IMG/VR virus record: IMGVR_UViG_2711768046_000005
Source of the DNA: a virus
Taxonomy: Duplodnaviria; Heunggongvirae; Uroviricota; Caudoviricetes
Length of the DNA: 35,930 nt
Direction: 5' to 3' (one strand)
A model generated the notes under the pieces. It saw only the letters and a program-made list of their open reading frames with translations. It was not told the origin of the DNA and made no database searches. Made by a program: the position numbers and the translations under genes. Shown piece after piece: positions 8,752 through 29,257 of the stretch. Position 1 is the stretch's first letter; every line of letters starts with the position of its first letter.

Positions 8752-10086
8752 ATGTTTAGCTTAATCATGGCCGGAGAACCGGACGTTTTTGACCGCTGGC
8801 CGTGTATGGACCCTGAGCTTAAAGAAGGCAAGGAAAGCTTCTCGATGTCCCGCATGCTGGAAGGCACCCCAAGCAATATTTACAGAAAATTAACACCAAT
8901 AAGACCCGATACCTTAAGAGTACTCGCCAAGCTACCGGTGTTGTTCATGACCGAAATTTATACAAAAGATGATGAATATGATACAAACAAGTACATCAGG
9001 ATCAGGCTTGGGGAAATAAGAAATTTACGTAAAGATGGTGGCGATATTTTATTTTCTTTCAAGATTAATCATGATTTTGGAGAAATAACGAATCCCCAAA
9101 CGACATTATATAAAGAAACCCTAGGACTAGGATCTTTCGGGTTAAGTCGTACACATTGGGCAGTAAAAAATAAGGATTTGAATATTGTTCTGGAATTACT
9201 TGGTTTAAACAAAAAAAATAGCCATCTGAAAGGTACAATCAAATTAAAAAAACAAACATACCCAGTAGTCGAGAATATTATAGATTATCTTAATTTCATT
9301 AAGAAAAACTTTCGTGATGGTCTCATTACCTTCTATCGTGGACACTCTAAAAGCTCATATGAGCTTGTCCCCTCTCTTTACAGAAAAAATCAAAACGGGA
9401 CGTACAGGCATCTTGCTTCAGAATCTGATTTAGTACGTGAAATACTCAGCGCAAGACCAAATGAATTTAAGGAGGATAAATTTACGATTGATAAACTTGT
9501 CCGCATGCAGCATTATGGCTTGCCTACAAGACTCTTAGACATTACATCTAACCCACTGATAGCATTATATTTTGCTTGCTGTTCGAACCCCGATGAAAAC
9601 GGACAGGTGATTGCGTTTTCAACAAACAGAAAGAAAATTAAATATTTCGACTCAGACACAGTGAGCTGTATAGCAAACTTATCACTTTTATCTTACGAAG
9701 AGTTGGAAAAATTGTCTTCCATTGATGCCAGAAAAGGTAGTATGGAGTTACCTGAACTCACTGATAAACTTGCAGACCTTATACAGAATGAAAAATCATA
9801 TTTCAGAAACAGAATAATCCCTGATGACTTAAAGAAAGTTGTTTTCCTTAAGGCAAAAATAAATAATGAACGCATACAATCTCAGGCAGGAGCTTTTCTT
9901 CTGTTCGGACTTGATCCCATTTTACCGGAAACAGATGCTGAGTTTCCTCTTAACAGAGTGGAGATAGCGAACAAAAATAAAATTCTGGAAGAGCTGGCAC
10001 AGCTTAATATATCCGAAAGCACTGTATATCCCAGCATGGAGAAAACGGCAGCAGAAATTACAAAAAAGTTTTTATCGGTATCATAA
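8752..10086 (+). CDS. FRG-domain protein with an uncharacterised N-terminal domain (444 aa), cargo at the P2 Z/fun position
   Basis: SD AGGAG (8741-8745) lies 6 nt before the ATG. Motifs FYRGH...LVPSLYR (aa 194-211), MQHYGLPTRLLDITSNPLIALYFAC (aa 252-276) and NNERIQSQAGAFLLFG (aa 371-386) fit my recollection of the FRG family (PF08867). The gene is AT-rich and on the strand opposite the flanking late genes. Confidence 0.65.
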   Translation: MFSLIMAGEPDVFDRWPCMDPELKEGKESFSMSRMLEGTPSNIYRKLTPIRPDTLRVLAKLPVLFMTEIYTKDDEYDTNKYIRIRLGEIRNLRKDGGDILFSFKINHDFGEITNPQTTLYKETLGLGSFGLSRTHWAVKNKDLNIVLELLGLNKKNSHLKGTIKLKKQTYPVVENIIDYLNFIKKNFRDGLITFYRGHSKSSYELVPSLYRKNQNGTYRHLASESDLVREILSARPNEFKEDKFTIDKLVRMQHYGLPTRLLDITSNPLIALYFACCSNPDENGQVIAFSTNRKKIKYFDSDTVSCIANLSLLSYEELEKLSSIDARKGSMELPELTDKLADLIQNEKSYFRNRIIPDDLKKVVFLKAKINNERIQSQAGAFLLFGLDPILPETDAEFPLNRVEIANKNKILEELAQLNISESTVYPSMEKTAAEITKKFLSVS

Positions 10087-14466: not shown

Positions 14467-14814
14467 TCAACTCACAGGGATGGTTAACGAAAGTGGCTGG
14501 CCGGTGTCGTTGTGCTGGCCGGTTAACGTGACCGTCATTCGCCCGTCAAAACCGCGCTCAGTGGTGACGGATGACAGGGTGACGCGGGGTTCCCATTTCA
14601 GCACAGCCATGTAACAGGCGACCTTAATCTGCAACTCAAGCGCCGGGGTCTGCGGCTGGTCAATCATTGATGCCAGCAACGAGCCGTAATCACGACGCAT
14701 CACCCGTGAGCCGACCGGTGTACGCAGGATATCGCCGATACTCTGGCTGATATGCTCAAGGTCAGTGACAGTCAGGCCATCACTGCGATTCATTCCGAGA
14801 TAACGCGCTGTCAT
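14467..14814 (-). CDS. W: Baseplate protein W (115 aa, gp25-like)
   Basis: P2 gpW length and synteny. There is a 4-nt overlap with V. Confidence 0.9.
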   Translation of the reverse strand: MTARYLGMNRSDGLTVTDLEHISQSIGDILRTPVGSRVMRRDYGSLLASMIDQPQTPALELQIKVACYMAVLKWEPRVTLSSVTTERGFDGRMTVTLTGQHNDTGQPLSLTIPVS

Positions 14815-15446
14815 AAAGGACTCCCGGTTGTGCCGCCGCTGTCGCCGGGGTGTTTATGGGTATGCAGTACCTTACCGTTTGATGAGAGTTCACCGCCGGT
14901 ATGTTCAATGTTGCCGCGCATCGTCCCGCCCTTCTGCACTTCCAGCGTGCCGGTAATCAGCCTGTTGGTGCAGACCACCTCCGGTGTGTCCAGGGTGACG
15001 CGGGTTGATGCTTTCACCATGACCACCGGCACCGTGGCAGTAACAGAATCAGAGGCCGTCACGCTGGCCGTTTTAATTCCGCTTACCGTAAGTGCACTGG
15101 TTTCGGGTTCATATTCAATCACCGCCCCGTCAGGGAAACGGATATGCAGGGCATCCGCCGACGCAGACGGCGCGGGGTTATCGCCGGAATAAATCCCCGG
15201 CAGAACGAACGCCGTGTCGAGTTCACCGCCCACGGCCAGAATCAGCACCTGTTCCCCCACGGAAGGTGCCCACCATGTGCGCGAACGCCCGGCGCGATGG
15301 GTCAGCCACTGAAGCCAGTCGGTGCACATGCCGCCGGTCTGCACACGGCAGCGACCGGCGTTAAGGTCGGTTTCGACGACAATGCCGGTGCGTATCATGT
15401 TGCGCAGTGCGCGCGCGAGTTCCTGAATATTTGATAATGTGCTCAT
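14811..15446 (-). CDS. V: Baseplate spike protein V (211 aa)
   Basis: MSTLSNIQELARALRNMIRTGIVVETDLNAGRCRVQTGG... is recognised. The start was trimmed to Met24 of the 234-aa ORF to give the P2 length of 211 aa. Confidence 0.85.
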   Translation of the reverse strand: MSTLSNIQELARALRNMIRTGIVVETDLNAGRCRVQTGGMCTDWLQWLTHRAGRSRTWWAPSVGEQVLILAVGGELDTAFVLPGIYSGDNPAPSASADALHIRFPDGAVIEYEPETSALTVSGIKTASVTASDSVTATVPVVMVKASTRVTLDTPEVVCTNRLITGTLEVQKGGTMRGNIEHTGGELSSNGKVLHTHKHPGDSGGTTGSPL

Positions 15447-15492
15447 ACGGCAATAATGAGAGATATATACTCGATAAACCATTACAACCCGT

Positions 15493-15510
15493 TGTATCAT
15501 TTTTGGCACA
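15493..15510 (-). promoter_or_regulatory. Ogr-responsive dyad of late promoter P_V (perfect TGT-N12-ACA)
   Basis: The sequence tgtatcatttttggcaca is centred at 15501.5, about 55 bp upstream of the V ATG region. A CATTAT -10-like hexamer lies at 15458-15453. P2 late promoters are known to carry TGT-N12-ACA near -55. Confidence 0.55.
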
Positions 15511-15529
15511 ATCAAGAAGGAACTGAAGT

Positions 15530-16273
15530 ATGGATAAATATCAAATCTGGGAAAATCAAAAAGACACCATCGCCCACCAAGAGTATTTAAAAATCTCCGA
15601 CACCAATTTACTTGGACATATGCATATTGCCAATTACGAAGTTGCCCAACATGAATTAAGCAAATTCAACTCCCCTGACATTGTTTCCCGTCATTCATTT
15701 AACAGAGACAAATTTAAAAAAGAACATTTAAACATATCAAGACACCTTTTCAATTATATATCTTCAGCATTATCATTTAGAGATTCAACGCGCAACCTAC
15801 TTAAAACAAAAGCATTAAATATTGCCGACATTAAAATCAAATCAGAGGCATTCATCAATCATGAATTCCGAAATAATCCAGTAATAAAATTAATGGAGGA
15901 CTTAAGAAACATCCTGACGCATCAAAACATGATCGCCCCATCAATATCATCATTCATGCACCTCCAAAGAAATATAAACATGCACGGCTTTTCATTTAAG
16001 ATTGAAAGAATCTTAAACAATGACAGAACCACCAAACAAACAAAAGAATATTTAATCTCACTAAAGCAAAAAAACTTATTCATTTTACCGATAATAGAAG
16101 AATACCAATACACGACTCTTAAGTATCAACACTGGCTTTTAGCAAGTATCTACACTGTTCATCAAGATACTTACCAAGAATACTGGAATGCGAGAAAAAA
16201 CATCATGAACGAATGGGGAGGAGACACTCAGCTAATACCTAAAGAGAGTGAGCTCACTTATTTAACCAGATAA
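15530..16273 (+). CDS. Hypothetical 247-aa protein with two RNxxxH (HEPN-like) motifs, cargo at the P2 orf30 position
   Basis: SD AAGGA (15517-15521) lies 8 nt before the ATG. The gene is very AT-rich and divergent from V. Motifs are LRNILTH (aa 125-131, nt 15902-15922) and QRNINMH (aa 146-152). I recognise no other family. Confidence 0.6.
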   Translation: MDKYQIWENQKDTIAHQEYLKISDTNLLGHMHIANYEVAQHELSKFNSPDIVSRHSFNRDKFKKEHLNISRHLFNYISSALSFRDSTRNLLKTKALNIADIKIKSEAFINHEFRNNPVIKLMEDLRNILTHQNMIAPSISSFMHLQRNINMHGFSFKIERILNNDRTTKQTKEYLISLKQKNLFILPIIEEYQYTTLKYQHWLLASIYTVHQDTYQEYWNARKNIMNEWGGDTQLIPKESELTYLTR

Positions 16274-16296
16274 CAACCTGGTCAGTTCGCAAACGG

Positions 16297-16327
16297 AAAA
16301 AACTGGCCGCGACATTTTATCGCGGCC
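16297..16327 (-). terminator. Rho-independent terminator between the S operon and the orf30-position cargo (stem shared by both strands)
   Basis: The stem is ggccgcga (16305-16312) / tcgcggcc (16320-16327). On the - strand it is followed by ag+tttttt (A-run 16297-16302), and on the + strand by ttaaacatt. Confidence 0.7.
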
Positions 16328-16477
16328 TTAAACATTCAAACGATCACCATTGATGAATCCTTATGCCCCAATCGACTGTATATTTTCAAGTGGCAATTAA
16401 AACTTATCCGACGAAAATACAAAGAGTGTTATACAACAATCAACAACTCAGCAATAAAGCGTAAAAAAATTGCACAA

Positions 16478-16930
16478 CTAACGATCGAGGTGAGCCAGGA
16501 TAATCTCTTCAATCATCTGCACATCCTTACCGGTAAAGCCGAGCAAAGGACGCGCCGGATAATCAATTTTCTTACCGTCTTTCCGGTTTTCTTCCGACAG
16601 ACCAAACTGATGCACACTGGCGATTTTCGGCGACTTCCCGCCGTAAAATTCCATTGATGCCTGCTCCGGGCTGGCACGGATATGCAAAAAACGACTGGTA
16701 ATAAGTTTCGCAAACATTTTTCGCTTAACGCGACCGGTCTTTTTTCTGACGCTCTGCTGCTGGCGTGGCGCGTAGGGTGTGCCGTCCGGGGCTTTCTGAG
16801 CCATCACCCGACGCTGCTGACTCTGCCGCAGACGTTTCGCCAGTTCGGCACTCAGTCGCCGACGCCCTGACGGTGACAGCGACTCAATCAGTCCGGTCAG
16901 CCGGTCTTCAAAACGCTTGAACTCATTCAT
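16478..16930 (-). CDS. S: Tail completion protein S (150 aa)
   Basis: P2 gpS length and synteny. Confidence 0.9.
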   Translation of the reverse strand: MNEFKRFEDRLTGLIESLSPSGRRRLSAELAKRLRQSQQRRVMAQKAPDGTPYAPRQQQSVRKKTGRVKRKMFAKLITSRFLHIRASPEQASMEFYGGKSPKIASVHQFGLSEENRKDGKKIDYPARPLLGFTGKDVQMIEEIILAHLDR

Positions 16931-25969: not shown

Positions 25970-27037
25970 TCATTTCTTAGCTTTCACAACCGGATGCGCG
26001 CGATCATGTCCACCGCCACGATGCTTAGAAAATATAACCTTTTCATTAGTAAAAGGTTTTTGGCCATAGACACTATCATAGTGGAAAAAGACGTTCGGAA
26101 GATGAGGCACACGGATGAATCCATACTTCACTCTAGTATCACCGATGACCCCAAAAACCCTTGTACTTACTGGGTAGCATAGTTCACCACAACGCATCAC
26201 TAATTCATCTGCTGTTGGGCGTTCAGAAGGTTCCAATTTTAAACAATCTTCTATAAGTTTAATTATTTCATTTGCCAATGGCGCATACTGTCTATTTGAA
26301 AATATAAAGTCAGGGTAAGGAACATGCGTGCCAGAAAGTATTTTTGGTATAGCCATATAACCAATACCAAAAGGGTATTTTCCAGTAAGAATCCTGAACA
26401 TCATCGCACCCAATGCCCAAATATCTGTAGGTTTCGAAACCTTACCTTGACTCTGTATGATTTCCGGTGCCATATATGGCAAAGCCCCGATAGCCGTTTG
26501 CGAAGAACTAATTGAATCTTGACCATTTCTTGCAGCCTCATCAATTTCATCTCCGGCCATCTTTGAAATGCCGAAATCCGTAATTTTTATCTCTGTAGCA
26601 TTGATACCACCGCCTACCATTATATTTGAAGGTTTGAGGTCCCGGTGTATGACGTCAACATGATGCGAAGCAGACAGAGCTTTAGCTAAATTATGAAATA
26701 TTTTAGCAGTTAAATATGGATCAACACTTGAATAAGTGTCTAAAATAGCCTTATCCAAGTCAACTCCATCAATAAATTCCTCCGTTAAAAACTCTCTACC
26801 CTCATCATCAATGAAGTAATCTAAGGTTTTAGCCACATTAGGATGATTAACCCTTGATGCTAATATTGCACTTCTATGAAACCTTTTTTCAGCAGATTTA
26901 TTTTTGGGAGTTTTGAGAGCCACATGCCTCGAGAGAATATTATCCATTGCCAAATAAACTTTTTGCATACCGCCTTCACCAATCTCCCTCAATATTGTAT
27001 ATCTGCTAACTTGAATTCCTGGAGTCAGATTTATCAT
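25970..27037 (-). CDS. Hanks-type Ser/Thr protein kinase with C-terminal cold-shock-domain-like module (355 aa)
   Basis: Kinase motifs are IGEGGMQKVY, VALK (K42), HRDLKPSN (D132), DFG (D154), LPYMAPE, DIWALG and ERP. C-terminal aa 291-352 read FGVIGDTRVKYGFIRVPHLPNVFFHYDSV...EKVIFSKH. This resembles CSD RNP1 (K-G-F-G-F-I) and RNP2 (V-F-V-H-F). SD GGAGGTG is present, and the ATGA overlaps the upstream gene. Confidence 0.85.
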   Translation of the reverse strand: MINLTPGIQVSRYTILREIGEGGMQKVYLAMDNILSRHVALKTPKNKSAEKRFHRSAILASRVNHPNVAKTLDYFIDDEGREFLTEEFIDGVDLDKAILDTYSSVDPYLTAKIFHNLAKALSASHHVDVIHRDLKPSNIMVGGGINATEIKITDFGISKMAGDEIDEAARNGQDSISSSQTAIGALPYMAPEIIQSQGKVSKPTDIWALGAMMFRILTGKYPFGIGYMAIPKILSGTHVPYPDFIFSNRQYAPLANEIIKLIEDCLKLEPSERPTADELVMRCGELCYPVSTRVFGVIGDTRVKYGFIRVPHLPNVFFHYDSVYGQKPFTNEKVIFSKHRGGGHDRAHPVVKAKK

Positions 27038-28098
27038 AACACCACCTCCGGATGGGAAAGGTCAAATGTAATGAAGACCCGCTCTTTTCTTGGCCGAGAA
27101 GTCTCTCCCAGAATAATAACACATGAATCAGGCAAAATATTATATTGCTTTGCAGCTATATTATTCACATACACCTCACCACTTAAACTCGATATATAAA
27201 ACTCTGAACCAGAATATTTCACCTCAATAGTCCCGACCCCTGAATTATTAAAAGCCGCAGATTTATTTGTTGAAGAAATGATGACGGGTGGAGTGTTATC
27301 AGAGATTAACAATGCTCTATGAGAGTTGTAGAGAACGAATTTTTTTAGAGTCTGACACACATCAGCCATATCAGGTCTCTCACAAGGATTCGTATCTAAA
27401 CATTGGAAAAGCAATTCTTTTACCTGAGTTGGTAACTGTATATTAGAATTATCAAAAGGATTAGACAATAATTTTTTGGGTAAAACTCTCATTTCCGGTG
27501 GTAGTGGGGTCTTAGCCAAAAACATGGCCGTTACAGCAAAAGCATATGTATCTATGGATTTTGTAAACGCTACTTGATGTAAAAATAATTCAGGTGCAGC
27601 ATATGTTGGGGTTCCTTTAAAACCTATTGTATTAGCTTCATCAACATTTCTAGATAGTCCGAAGTCATAAATCTTCACTACTCCCTCAGAATCAATTTTC
27701 ATGTTCCCAGGCTTGATATCCCTATGAATAATATCATGAGAATGTATCTCAGAAATACCCGAAGATATTTGCCACAAAATTTTAATCAAATCTTCAGAAT
27801 TTAATATGCGATCCTCTACTTCCAATAATGAAGGTCCGTCAACATACTCTTCGACTATAGCAATTCCTTTACCTTGATAATTAATAACATCATAAAGCTC
27901 TACTACATGTTTTGATCTTAATTTCATCAATGCTGATAACTCATCCATCATTCGAGGAGAATCATCAGGATTACTTATGGACTTTATAGCGACAAATCTT
28001 TCGAGGTGAGTATCCAAGCATTTGATCACGCAACCAAATCCTCCCGAAGCCTCTTCTTCAGTCCTCTTATATCTTGCAGGGAGAGTAAAATTAGTCAT
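27034..28098 (-). CDS. Hanks-type Ser/Thr protein kinase with FHA-like C-terminal beta domain (354 aa)
   Basis: Kinase motifs are SGGFGCV, VAIK (K39), HRDIKPGN (D126), DFG (D145), GTPTYAAPE and CERP. The C-terminal roughly 90 aa (...IEVKYSGSEFYISSLSGEVYVNNIAAKQYNILPDSCVIILGE...) have an FHA-like strand pattern. SD AAGGAG is present, and there is an 8-nt overlap (ATGACTAA) with the phosphatase gene. Confidence 0.85.
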   Translation of the reverse strand: MTNFTLPARYKRTEEEASGGFGCVIKCLDTHLERFVAIKSISNPDDSPRMMDELSALMKLRSKHVVELYDVINYQGKGIAIVEEYVDGPSLLEVEDRILNSEDLIKILWQISSGISEIHSHDIIHRDIKPGNMKIDSEGVVKIYDFGLSRNVDEANTIGFKGTPTYAAPELFLHQVAFTKSIDTYAFAVTAMFLAKTPLPPEMRVLPKKLLSNPFDNSNIQLPTQVKELLFQCLDTNPCERPDMADVCQTLKKFVLYNSHRALLISDNTPPVIISSTNKSAAFNNSGVGTIEVKYSGSEFYISSLSGEVYVNNIAAKQYNILPDSCVIILGETSRPRKERVFITFDLSHPEVVL

Positions 28099-29257
28099 CT
28101 TTATCTCCTTTAGTGGAGTTTTTCTCAGAGAATGAAATATCTAACTGTGAAATATTATCTAACTTATCATTATTGTTAGCTTCGATAACATTCCTTCCCT
28201 CATCACTCTTTATATTACTATTTTTTTTCTTTGTACGTGATTTCCTTTTCGATACATTTTTTTTGTTAGAAATTTCATTACTGCATTCTAACTCAGTAAC
28301 TTTTCTATCAATAACATTTTCAACCGTAGCTGAGTTAGGTATATCTAACGGCGCAGGTTGCACGCTAATTACTTTCATCTCACCAAAAGGATCCCATAAA
28401 TTAATTACATCCCCAGATGATACATCCAAAGCACTTAGGATGTTCGAAATCTCAACTACCGCAATCGACGCATTATCAAATCCACCAAACCAACTAGCTA
28501 GATCTATAACTCTTTTAGCGAACACTCCAGTATTATTGGAGTGAGCATATAATTTTCTCAAATTATTACTGTCAATGGTATGAGCACCATCTGAAGTTAA
28601 TGCAACCACCCCAGGTACGAGCCGAATATCGTGAAAATGTATCTCAAGAACACCATCAAGACCTATAAACTGTACTAACTCGCCACCTAACCTAGAATCA
28701 ATAACACCTGAGTCACTACCAAGATGCTCATTATATTTCTTTGCCAATACAGCTAATGTATCATCCTCACTAATTTGTTTTATGTGTTCAGCATTAATGG
28801 AATATATGCGACTATCCCCGACATTTATTGCTGTAATGTTATCGGAGTCATCTACAGCTAAGGCAGATAACGTAGCCCCACCGTTCCCATTATATACTTT
28901 CAAAACCGATTCATTTGCTTTTAAAACGGCGATTTCAAGACATTGTCTAATTGGCAAGCCTGAGTGTTTAATTATCTCGGTAAAAAAAGATGATACGGTC
29001 AATGAAGCAGCATTCGCTCCCCCTTCCATCCCCCCCATACCATCTGCTAAAGCGATGACAATCATGTCCTTATTCTTACTAAAAGGACGAAATTTTAATA
29101 CAGCTACCCGGTCTTGGTTCTCTTTCCTAACTAAACCTATGTCTGTAGCAATAGCTGCAGGTAGCATAGATACTCTTCGTACAGATGAAGAGATATTTTT
29201 TCTATGCAGCCAAGCGTGTATCTGTTCATGAAGGATCTCGTAAGAGTCTCGACTCAC
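28091..29257 (-). CDS. PP2C (PPM)-family Ser/Thr phosphatase with Lys/Asn-rich C-terminal tail (388 aa)
   Basis: A GTG start is preceded by a strong SD GAGGAGG. PPM motifs are RKENQD (D49), ALADGMGG (D72), GGATLSAL, VGDSRIY, LTSDG (D223) and DNASIAVV (D261). The tail at aa 325-388 is low complexity. Confidence 0.85.
   Translation of the reverse strand: MSRDSYEILHEQIHAWLHRKNISSSVRRVSMLPAAIATDIGLVRKENQDRVAVLKFRPFSKNKDMIVIALADGMGGMEGGANAASLTVSSFFTEIIKHSGLPIRQCLEIAVLKANESVLKVYNGNGGATLSALAVDDSDNITAINVGDSRIYSINAEHIKQISEDDTLAVLAKKYNEHLGSDSGVIDSRLGGELVQFIGLDGVLEIHFHDIRLVPGVVALTSDGAHTIDSNNLRKLYAHSNNTGVFAKRVIDLASWFGGFDNASIAVVEISNILSALDVSSGDVINLWDPFGEMKVISVQPAPLDIPNSATVENVIDRKVTELECSNEISNKKNVSKRKSRTKKKNSNIKSDEGRNVIEANNNDKLDNISQLDISFSEKNSTKGDKDD

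Follow-up and report, generated by a model that had tools for sequence, protein, structure and literature searches.

What does a lone AT-rich gene between two tail genes of a P2-like prophage do for its carrier? We addressed this question in a stretch of 35,930 nucleotides (IMG/VR record IMGVR_UViG_2711768046_000005, hereafter the window), a P2-like Escherichia coli prophage in which an open reading frame (ORF) of 247 aa, the target gene, lies in the gap between gpV and gpS (ATG at 15530, stop codon at 16271–16273, + strand). An earlier note on this DNA had suggested a possible HEPN-type ribonuclease (RNase) with two RNxxxH motifs, acting as defence or exclusion cargo. Analysis of the locus established a single-gene cassette whose product has one invariant motif, and both the predicted fold and the position of this motif fit the HEPN superfamily. 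Our preferred explanation, to which we assign a probability of roughly 0.5, is that the protein is a stand-alone member of this superfamily from an unannotated family, expressed in the lysogen and unleashed as an RNase upon infection, that is, a single-protein defence or exclusion effector of the abortive infection (Abi) type. Taken separately, membership in the HEPN superfamily is probable, RNase activity would be rather likely by analogy with HEPN biology, and an anti-phage or exclusion role stands at slightly worse than even odds.

Conservation and predicted fold of the target protein

Both strings reported in the earlier note, RNILTH at residues 126–131 and RNINMH at residues 147–152, are present in the protein. 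Among composition-preserving shuffles of its sequence, one Rx4H occurred in 48%, two Rx4H in 12%, and two RNxxxH in 0.1%. Among 5.8 billion proteins, only seven clusters at 90% identity are close to the target (99–51% identity), one of them being a frameshifted fragment. Arg-126, Asn-127, and His-131 are invariant in all seven full-length close homologues, as is the surrounding segment E-[DE]-L-R-N-I-[LI]-T-H-Q. The second string fared differently, as Arg-147 is replaced by Lys, Asn, or Asp and His-152 by Ser; only the first of the two proposed motifs is therefore conserved. The second is located on a beta-hairpin modeled with low confidence (predicted local distance difference test, pLDDT, 65–69).

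Searching 1.84 billion cluster representatives exhaustively with a HMMER profile disclosed a wider family of 329 proteins at an expect value (E) ≤ 1e-3, 28 of them at E ≤ 1e-10; the majority are about 240 aa long and match over nearly their full length. Family alignments of 125–150 relatives at 15–25% identity revealed Asn-75, Arg-126, and His-131 as invariant, and Asn-35, Arg-71, Arg-88, Tyr-192, and Trp-202 as conserved in more than 90%. The Arg-126/His-131 pair occurs in 148 of 148 relatives, and Asn-127 in 123 of the 148 (otherwise Gln or Asp), with no exception in the P2-borne clade, giving the family signature D-L-R-N-[YF]-x-L-H. Helix 2 shows a second group of conserved positions: Glu-68 (113/150), Arg-71 (138/150), the invariant Asn-75, Asp or Glu at 85, and Arg-88.

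An AlphaFold model computed with the seven close homologues was unusable (pLDDT 51), whereas 29 diverse sequences yielded a confident one (pLDDT 88, predicted template modeling score 0.86). This model contains long helices at residues 14–47, 59–92, 99–131 (kinked at 115/116), and 185–229 (kinked at 215). Arg-126 to His-131 form the last six residues of helix 3 (segment 117–131). Between helices 3 and 4, directly after the motif, is an insert (137–184) composed of a beta-hairpin (137–157) and short helices, the region in which the protein varies most; the description of the protein as all-helical in the earlier note does not survive this model. Foldseek searches against PDB and BFVD returned nothing significant. 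The names that appeared (ClyA, NheA, STAT) are long-helix artefacts with E ≥ 0.014, template modeling (TM) scores of 0.12–0.25 (about 0.16), and root-mean-square deviations above 20 Å. No hydrophobic segment was found in the target (maximal KD19 0.49), which, together with a TM score of about 0.16, argues against an alpha-pore-forming toxin of the ClyA type, an elongated bundle with a hydrophobic beta-tongue. Sequence and profile matches in PDB to TRF2 and tropinone reductase were chance only.

The target gene is real and under selection. The ratio of nonsynonymous to synonymous substitution rates (dN/dS) is 0.17 between the window and its 81% variant and 0.08 between two other homologous loci (L002 and L006), while in the remaining pairs synonymous sites are saturated (pN 0.20–0.31, pS about 0.8). 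In every host phage the GC content of the gene is 0.32–0.35. All close homologues examined (51–99% identity) are lone genes in the same V–S gap, in the same orientation, of P2-like prophages, some of which share only 72–76% DNA identity with known P2-like phages of Escherichia, Klebsiella, and Yersinia.

The earlier note had seen no antitoxin ORF, and this held for every P2-borne copy, each consisting of a single gene with no partner ORF in the cassette. Since the intergenic distances are only 83 bp upstream and 90–212 bp downstream, and since the extra downstream spacer is missing from divergent copies, there is no room for a partner. The cassette contains no direct or tandem repeats, no Rfam match, and no conserved antisense ORF. 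Across 40 family loci from species-representative genomes, the only recurrent neighbors reflect shared synteny among loci of Rubrobacteraceae, related actinomycetes, and one Anaerolineae. A pattern scan of the fetched loci for HEPN/NTase (HEPN-MNT) pairs also found none. The 40 loci belong to Gamma-, Beta-, Alpha-, and Zetaproteobacteria, Campylobacterota, Acidobacteriota, Chloroflexota, Actinomycetota, Cyanobacteria, Bacteroidota, and a Methanothrix, a patchy spread typical of mobile accessory genes.

All public copies are named 'hypothetical protein'. The target itself has no match in Pfam, NCBIfam, or PADLOC, and its PHROG matches are exclusively families of unknown function (PHROG 12680), with PHROGs 23007 and 26242 matching fragments. 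About a dozen relatives are fusions of about 700 aa (approximately 690–720 aa: P0038, P0053, P0076, P0080, P0105, P0131, P0139, P0144). Their C-terminal portion of about 450 aa, inspected for a clue to a partner domain, gave no Pfam match; toward its end it contains conserved strings, E..LL[KR]H..E and YRI..RH among them, and it may represent a second uncharacterized, perhaps HEPN-like, domain. A few distant members have defence-type neighbors: one lies 23 bp downstream of a 970-aa restriction-modification enzyme of the MmeI type (L007, 5066–8669), and another is beside SNase, SocA/Panacea antitoxin-domain, and N6_Mtase/Eco57I genes (L010, 1770–8081).

Relation to the HEPN superfamily and rival explanations

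HEPN enzymes are metal-independent RNases with a dimeric composite active site. In the published description of the superfamily, the motif is located at the end of helix 3 or the start of the loop between helices 3 and 4 with its His exposed, the residue after the Arg is typically Asn, Asp, or His, a conserved acidic residue, when present, is in helix 2, and helix 4 is often kinked (PMC3710099). The target model displays an all-alpha core of two alpha-hairpins in a four-helix up-down bundle, an Rx4-6H motif present in all 148 relatives and all seven close homologues, and a polar residue, Asn-127, following the Arg. The motif sits where the description places it, judged by secondary-structure position only, and the kink in helix 4 and the beta-hairpin after the motif likewise match (PMC3710099). 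The acidic feature of helix 2, typically Ex3[KR], is found in part: the family has Glu-68 (75%) with the spacing Ex2R, and Arg-71 is lost in some members of the P2 clade. Overall, the position of Arg-126 and His-131 fits that of the HEPN catalytic pair. The HEPN-like fold that the earlier note had asked for in profile or structure searches was obtained from the predicted structure, while the profiles of curated HEPN families gave no significant match.

The only HEPN family compared with the target by profile was that of pEK499_p136, a 'HEPN family nuclease' of the E. coli plasmid pEK499, which was aligned with its relatives, all carrying PF18736, into a profile of 63 sequences. The hhalign comparison of the target family with the single pEK499 sequence gave E 0.14, and with the 63-sequence profile E 0.011, a probability of 3.9%, and 25 aligned columns. 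Each run returned one alignment, which placed LRNYxLH onto lRnSVAH, motif on motif, and spanned the RNxxxH helix together with the subsequent strand-like segment. The pEK499_p136 family differs in its length (about 166 aa) and in its other invariant positions.

Comparison with better-known systems places the target nearest, in the mechanism proposed for it, to the stand-alone Abi-type HEPN proteins (AbiD/AbiF, that is, Pfam Abi_2; AbiU2; AbiV; and the C-terminal domain of AbiJ). Like them it is a single-gene, partner-less protein within the range of about 200–350 aa, with a motif of the RN/RDxxxH type and a location on mobile elements; unlike them it is matched by none of their Pfam or PADLOC models, and neither are the 125–150 family members. 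The minimal HEPN proteins, namely the HI0074/NTase-substrate-binding family and the HepT (DUF86) toxins of type VII HEPN-MNT systems (PDB: 1jog, 7ae2, 5yep, 8xdj, 1ylm), are about 110 residues shorter; the target has a longer N-terminal helix pair and an insert of about 50 residues, a beta-hairpin plus helix, after the motif, and it shows no detectable sequence similarity to them. A type VII HEPN-MNT toxin–antitoxin system was rejected, as no MNT nucleotidyltransferase gene is adjacent and the cassette holds a single gene throughout. From the CRISPR-associated Csx1 family the target differs by lacking a CARF domain, a CRISPR context, and any sequence or structure match in our searches.

Several observations weigh against a HEPN effector of defence. 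Position 68, where most of the family has Glu, is Asn in the window protein, and the equivalence of Arg-126/His-131 with the catalytic pair is drawn from secondary-structure position only. No curated HEPN family matched significantly (Pfam, NCBIfam, PADLOC, and hhalign against PF18736), the 125–150 family members have no recurrent Pfam family, HEPN or otherwise, even below threshold, and PADLOC-DB 2.0 gave 0 matches for the target and noise-level singletons only for 150 relatives. The PF18736 alignment is not significant; if the target family is a HEPN lineage, it is a very distant one. Sequence-profile searches of PDB showed no HEPN link. The genomic context is also unhelpful: in the 40 species genomes most flanking genes have housekeeping functions, and neither a defence-island signal nor a conserved neighbor is seen. 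The sigma-70-like sites of the region number 5 against a shuffled expectation of 3.9, not above chance, which leaves the promoter evidence weak. Lastly, split or truncated copies exist (NZ_CP025849.1, H33; P0007; P0192; PHROGs 23007 and 26242), in the form of two adjacent 'hypothetical proteins', a 126-aa C-terminal half, or a 156-aa frameshifted version, indicating that some copies are decaying and that pseudogenisation occurs occasionally.

The same evidence on fold and motif would apply to a HEPN-type RNase that serves the phage itself, whether in counter-defence, in shut-off of host or competitor RNA during the lytic cycle, in processing of phage transcripts, or in control of lysogeny and induction. 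The target gene lies at most 20 bp from the Ogr box of a late promoter, and the wider family is neither enriched in defence islands nor matched by a PADLOC model. We nevertheless regard it as unlikely, because the gap is empty in about two thirds of the sampled P2-like prophages, which makes the gene dispensable for the phage cycle; moreover, the gene is transcribed against the late operons, activation by Ogr would seem to need a start site inside the ORF, and the other AT-rich cargo of P2-like phages is typically defence. A four-helix bundle outside the HEPN superfamily, for example, an adaptor, regulator, or structural factor using the conserved Arg and His for binding or other chemistry, would account for the missing sequence-profile link and for the weak best Foldseek matches to long-helix toxins and coiled coils. 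It is improbable in view of the absolute invariance of Arg-126 and His-131, with an exact spacing of four residues and usually Asn after the Arg, in 148 sequences at 15–25% identity, and of the pair's place at the C-terminal end of helix 3, which HEPN proteins share; its ClyA-type version is further countered by the lack of a hydrophobic segment and the low TM score given above.

The remaining alternatives are weaker still. The protein could be the toxin of a toxin–antitoxin pair, acting mainly as an addiction or stabilization module, with an antitoxin that escaped notice, either within the cassette (as a small ORF or an RNA) or encoded elsewhere; the 140-bp non-coding spacer after the terminator speaks for this. 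That spacer is missing in the 51–59% homologues, which leaves no room for a partner, and the absence of tandem repeats, Rfam matches, a conserved antisense ORF, and a conserved neighbor in 40 loci makes this explanation highly improbable. A protein with two HEPN motifs in a tandem or double active site, as in Cas13 or Swt1, is scarcely credible: the rarity of two RNxxxH strings in shuffles is what speaks for it, whereas conservation already refutes it, the second string being variable in close homologues and absent from the wider family. That string is also on a beta-hairpin instead of a helix end, in a protein with a single four-helix core. The single-motif, Abi-type HEPN effector remains our preferred reading, and it is reasonable to consider the target a candidate effector, anti-phage or toxic, encoded by a single gene.

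The gpV–gpS gap as a cargo site

The earlier note placed an AT-rich gene between V and S, divergent from V and with its own Shine-Dalgarno sequence, and each of these points was borne out. The GC content of the target gene is 0.335, compared with 0.506 for the whole window and about 0.57–0.59 for the flanking tail genes; gpV (14811–15446, −) is divergent from it and gpS (16478–16930, −) convergent. The V start at 15446 follows RefSeq and the comparison with phage Wphi; the mechanical ORF list stretches gpV to a TTG at 15515 (14811–15515, −), overlapping the Ogr box. Over the target gene the window is 100% identical to NZ_CP145671 (strain S1-ZIM-01-A), where the prophage is integrated beside yegQ/ogrK.

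Homology with Wphi ends at about 15453 and restarts at 16468, which defines a cassette of about 1,014 bp in place of 48 bp of the gpV–gpS junction; the empty gap is 66 bp in the P2-like phages Wphi and KC618326. Within the cassette the order is TGT-N12-ACA box, target gene, terminator hairpin, and 140-bp AT-rich spacer (Table 1). About 55 nt separate the center of the box from the annotated V start, as is the case for the activator site annotated in P2 (NC_001895), and the box probably functions as the Ogr activator box of the late gpV promoter. The candidate promoter of the target gene overlaps it with its −10 element. Regarding the terminator stem that the earlier note considered common to the target gene and the S operon, the hairpin exists and its stem is preserved by compensatory changes in the 81% variant (GGCCACGAT...ATCGTGGCC). 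Because its T-run is confined to the − strand, the hairpin terminates the R–S operon and gives the target gene a weak stop at most. The downstream spacer measures 204–212 bp in the window and in one further locus (L015, 3745–3956) and 90–104 bp in three others (L002, L005, L006). In the window, the spacer includes one arm (16344–16365) of a 22-nt inverted repeat (77%), the other arm being inside the coding sequence (15843–15864).

Table 1. Features of the cassette between gpV and gpS (positions in the window)
Feature	Position	Strand	Basis or remark
Cargo cassette, about 1,014 bp	15454-16467	.	Comparison with Wphi; coincides with AT-rich trough
Candidate sigma-70 promoter of target gene, TCGATA-18-TATCAT	15471-15500	+	Consensus scan, 9/12 matches
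Putative Ogr-type activator box TGT-N12-ACA, late gpV promoter	15493-15510	-	Pattern match TGTATCATTTTTGGCACA; inside cassette
Shine-Dalgarno sequence GAAGGA	15516-15521	+	8 nt before ATG, read from sequence
Coding sequence, 247 aa, predicted HEPN-like four-helix-bundle protein	15530-16273	+	
R126-N127-I-L-T-H131 codons, conserved putative catalytic Rx4H, C-terminal end of helix 3	15905-15922	+	Conservation and model
R147-N-I-N-M-H152 codons, second 'motif'	15968-15985	+	Unconserved, judged chance
GC-rich hairpin, intrinsic terminator of R-S late operon	16305-16327	-	Terminator scan: 10 pairs, 7 GC, tail AGTTTTTTCC on - strand only
AT-rich non-coding spacer, about 140 bp, terminator to gpS stop	16328-16467	.	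Only in E. coli variants of cassette

To place this insertion among P2-like prophages, 60 of the 1,592 E. coli records with a V/S region were sampled. The majority have an empty gap (span of 1,615 bp), with about two thirds of the sampled prophages lacking any gene there; in about one fifth the span is 2,489 bp, as would fit an insert of the size of orf30, and a few have other sizes. The target gene itself occurs in 16 of 5,426 complete genomes (six copies at about 100% identity and ten at about 81%), corresponding to about 1% of the 1,589 genomes having this V/S region, and it is absent from all phage records of the INPHARED collection. P2 Orf30 (NP_046770; 261 aa, non-essential; L014, 1440–2225, P2 NC_001895) is the classical occupant of the gap and is likewise functionally uncharacterized. 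The earlier note's assignment of the target to the P2 orf30 locus was correct as to position and cargo nature, since both genes have the same S–V position and orientation, are AT-rich morons, and encode proteins without a Pfam domain. No relationship exists between the two protein sequences (BLASTP E 0.77; hhalign probability 0.2%), and homology of the target to Orf30 was rejected. Occupation of one position by unrelated genes indicates a site of cargo exchange, of which the target gene is among the rarer occupants.

Published surveys locate the defence cargo of P2-like phages mainly at two sites, Z/fun and the interval between gpA and gpQ, and they mention less populated sites 'within the tail genes'; the S–V gap and the target protein are not discussed in them. 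The literature likewise contained no mention of the accessions concerned here or of a HEPN gene at the V–S locus. Two other hotspots are occupied in the window. At the Z/fun site, an AT-rich gene (8752–10086, +) encodes a 444-aa FRG-domain protein, which over its C-terminal 270 aa matches PDC-S15, a candidate defence family of PADLOC (E 7e-99). The old/tin site encodes two paralogous Ser/Thr kinases (355 and 354 aa; 25970–28098), both matching PD-T4-6 and mad6 (E about 1e-50). This latter cargo (25970–29257, −) also includes a 388-aa PP2C-family phosphatase without a PADLOC match; together, the two kinases and the phosphatase may represent a variant PD-T4-6 system. The defence-like content of these two hotspots suggests that the target gene could be defence or exclusion cargo as well, yet the wider family resides mostly among housekeeping genes.

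Proposed mechanism and significance

The target gene makes up an AT-rich cassette of its own and is transcribed in opposition to the late operons on either side; it is therefore most likely an accessory gene expressed in the lysogen, where, judging from position and orientation, its own promoter would drive it. In the proposed mechanism, Arg-126-Asn-127-x3-His-131 at the end of helix 3 of the four-helix bundle would form the metal-independent RNase center, presumably assisted by the invariant polar residues Asn-75, Asp-85, and Arg-88 of helix 2. By analogy with other HEPN enzymes, the protein probably dimerizes to build a composite active site. The variable insert (137–184) would be the likeliest place for recognition of a substrate or trigger and is a plausible regulatory element. 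Infection would then unleash the RNase, resulting in Abi-type defence or exclusion. On a more speculative note, Ogr might silence the target gene once the prophage itself turns lytic, which we propose because the candidate −10 element overlaps the Ogr box. In its boldest form, this scheme would have the target found a stand-alone HEPN family not described before, comprising over 300 bacterial and archaeal clusters, and its P2-borne branch would make the V–S gap a third, as yet unexploited defence site of P2-like phages, with antitoxin-free gating through the insert and the Ogr-overlapped promoter, which would be on in the lysogen and off in the phage's own late development, sparing its own replication; in this full form we consider the scheme quite unlikely.

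HEPN Abi effectors that act as single proteins are well known, as are defence hotspots in prophages, and for this reason the gain would be incremental, a new family of a known kind and not a new kind of system. If the preferred reading is true, a HEPN RNase family has been missed by Pfam, NCBIfam, PADLOC, the functional categories of PHROG, and PGAP. The gpV–gpS gap would become a further cargo site worth mining, alongside the old/tin and Z/fun sites on which published hotspot surveys concentrate. A partner-less HEPN enzyme would also raise the question of how a potentially lethal RNase is kept silent without an antitoxin.
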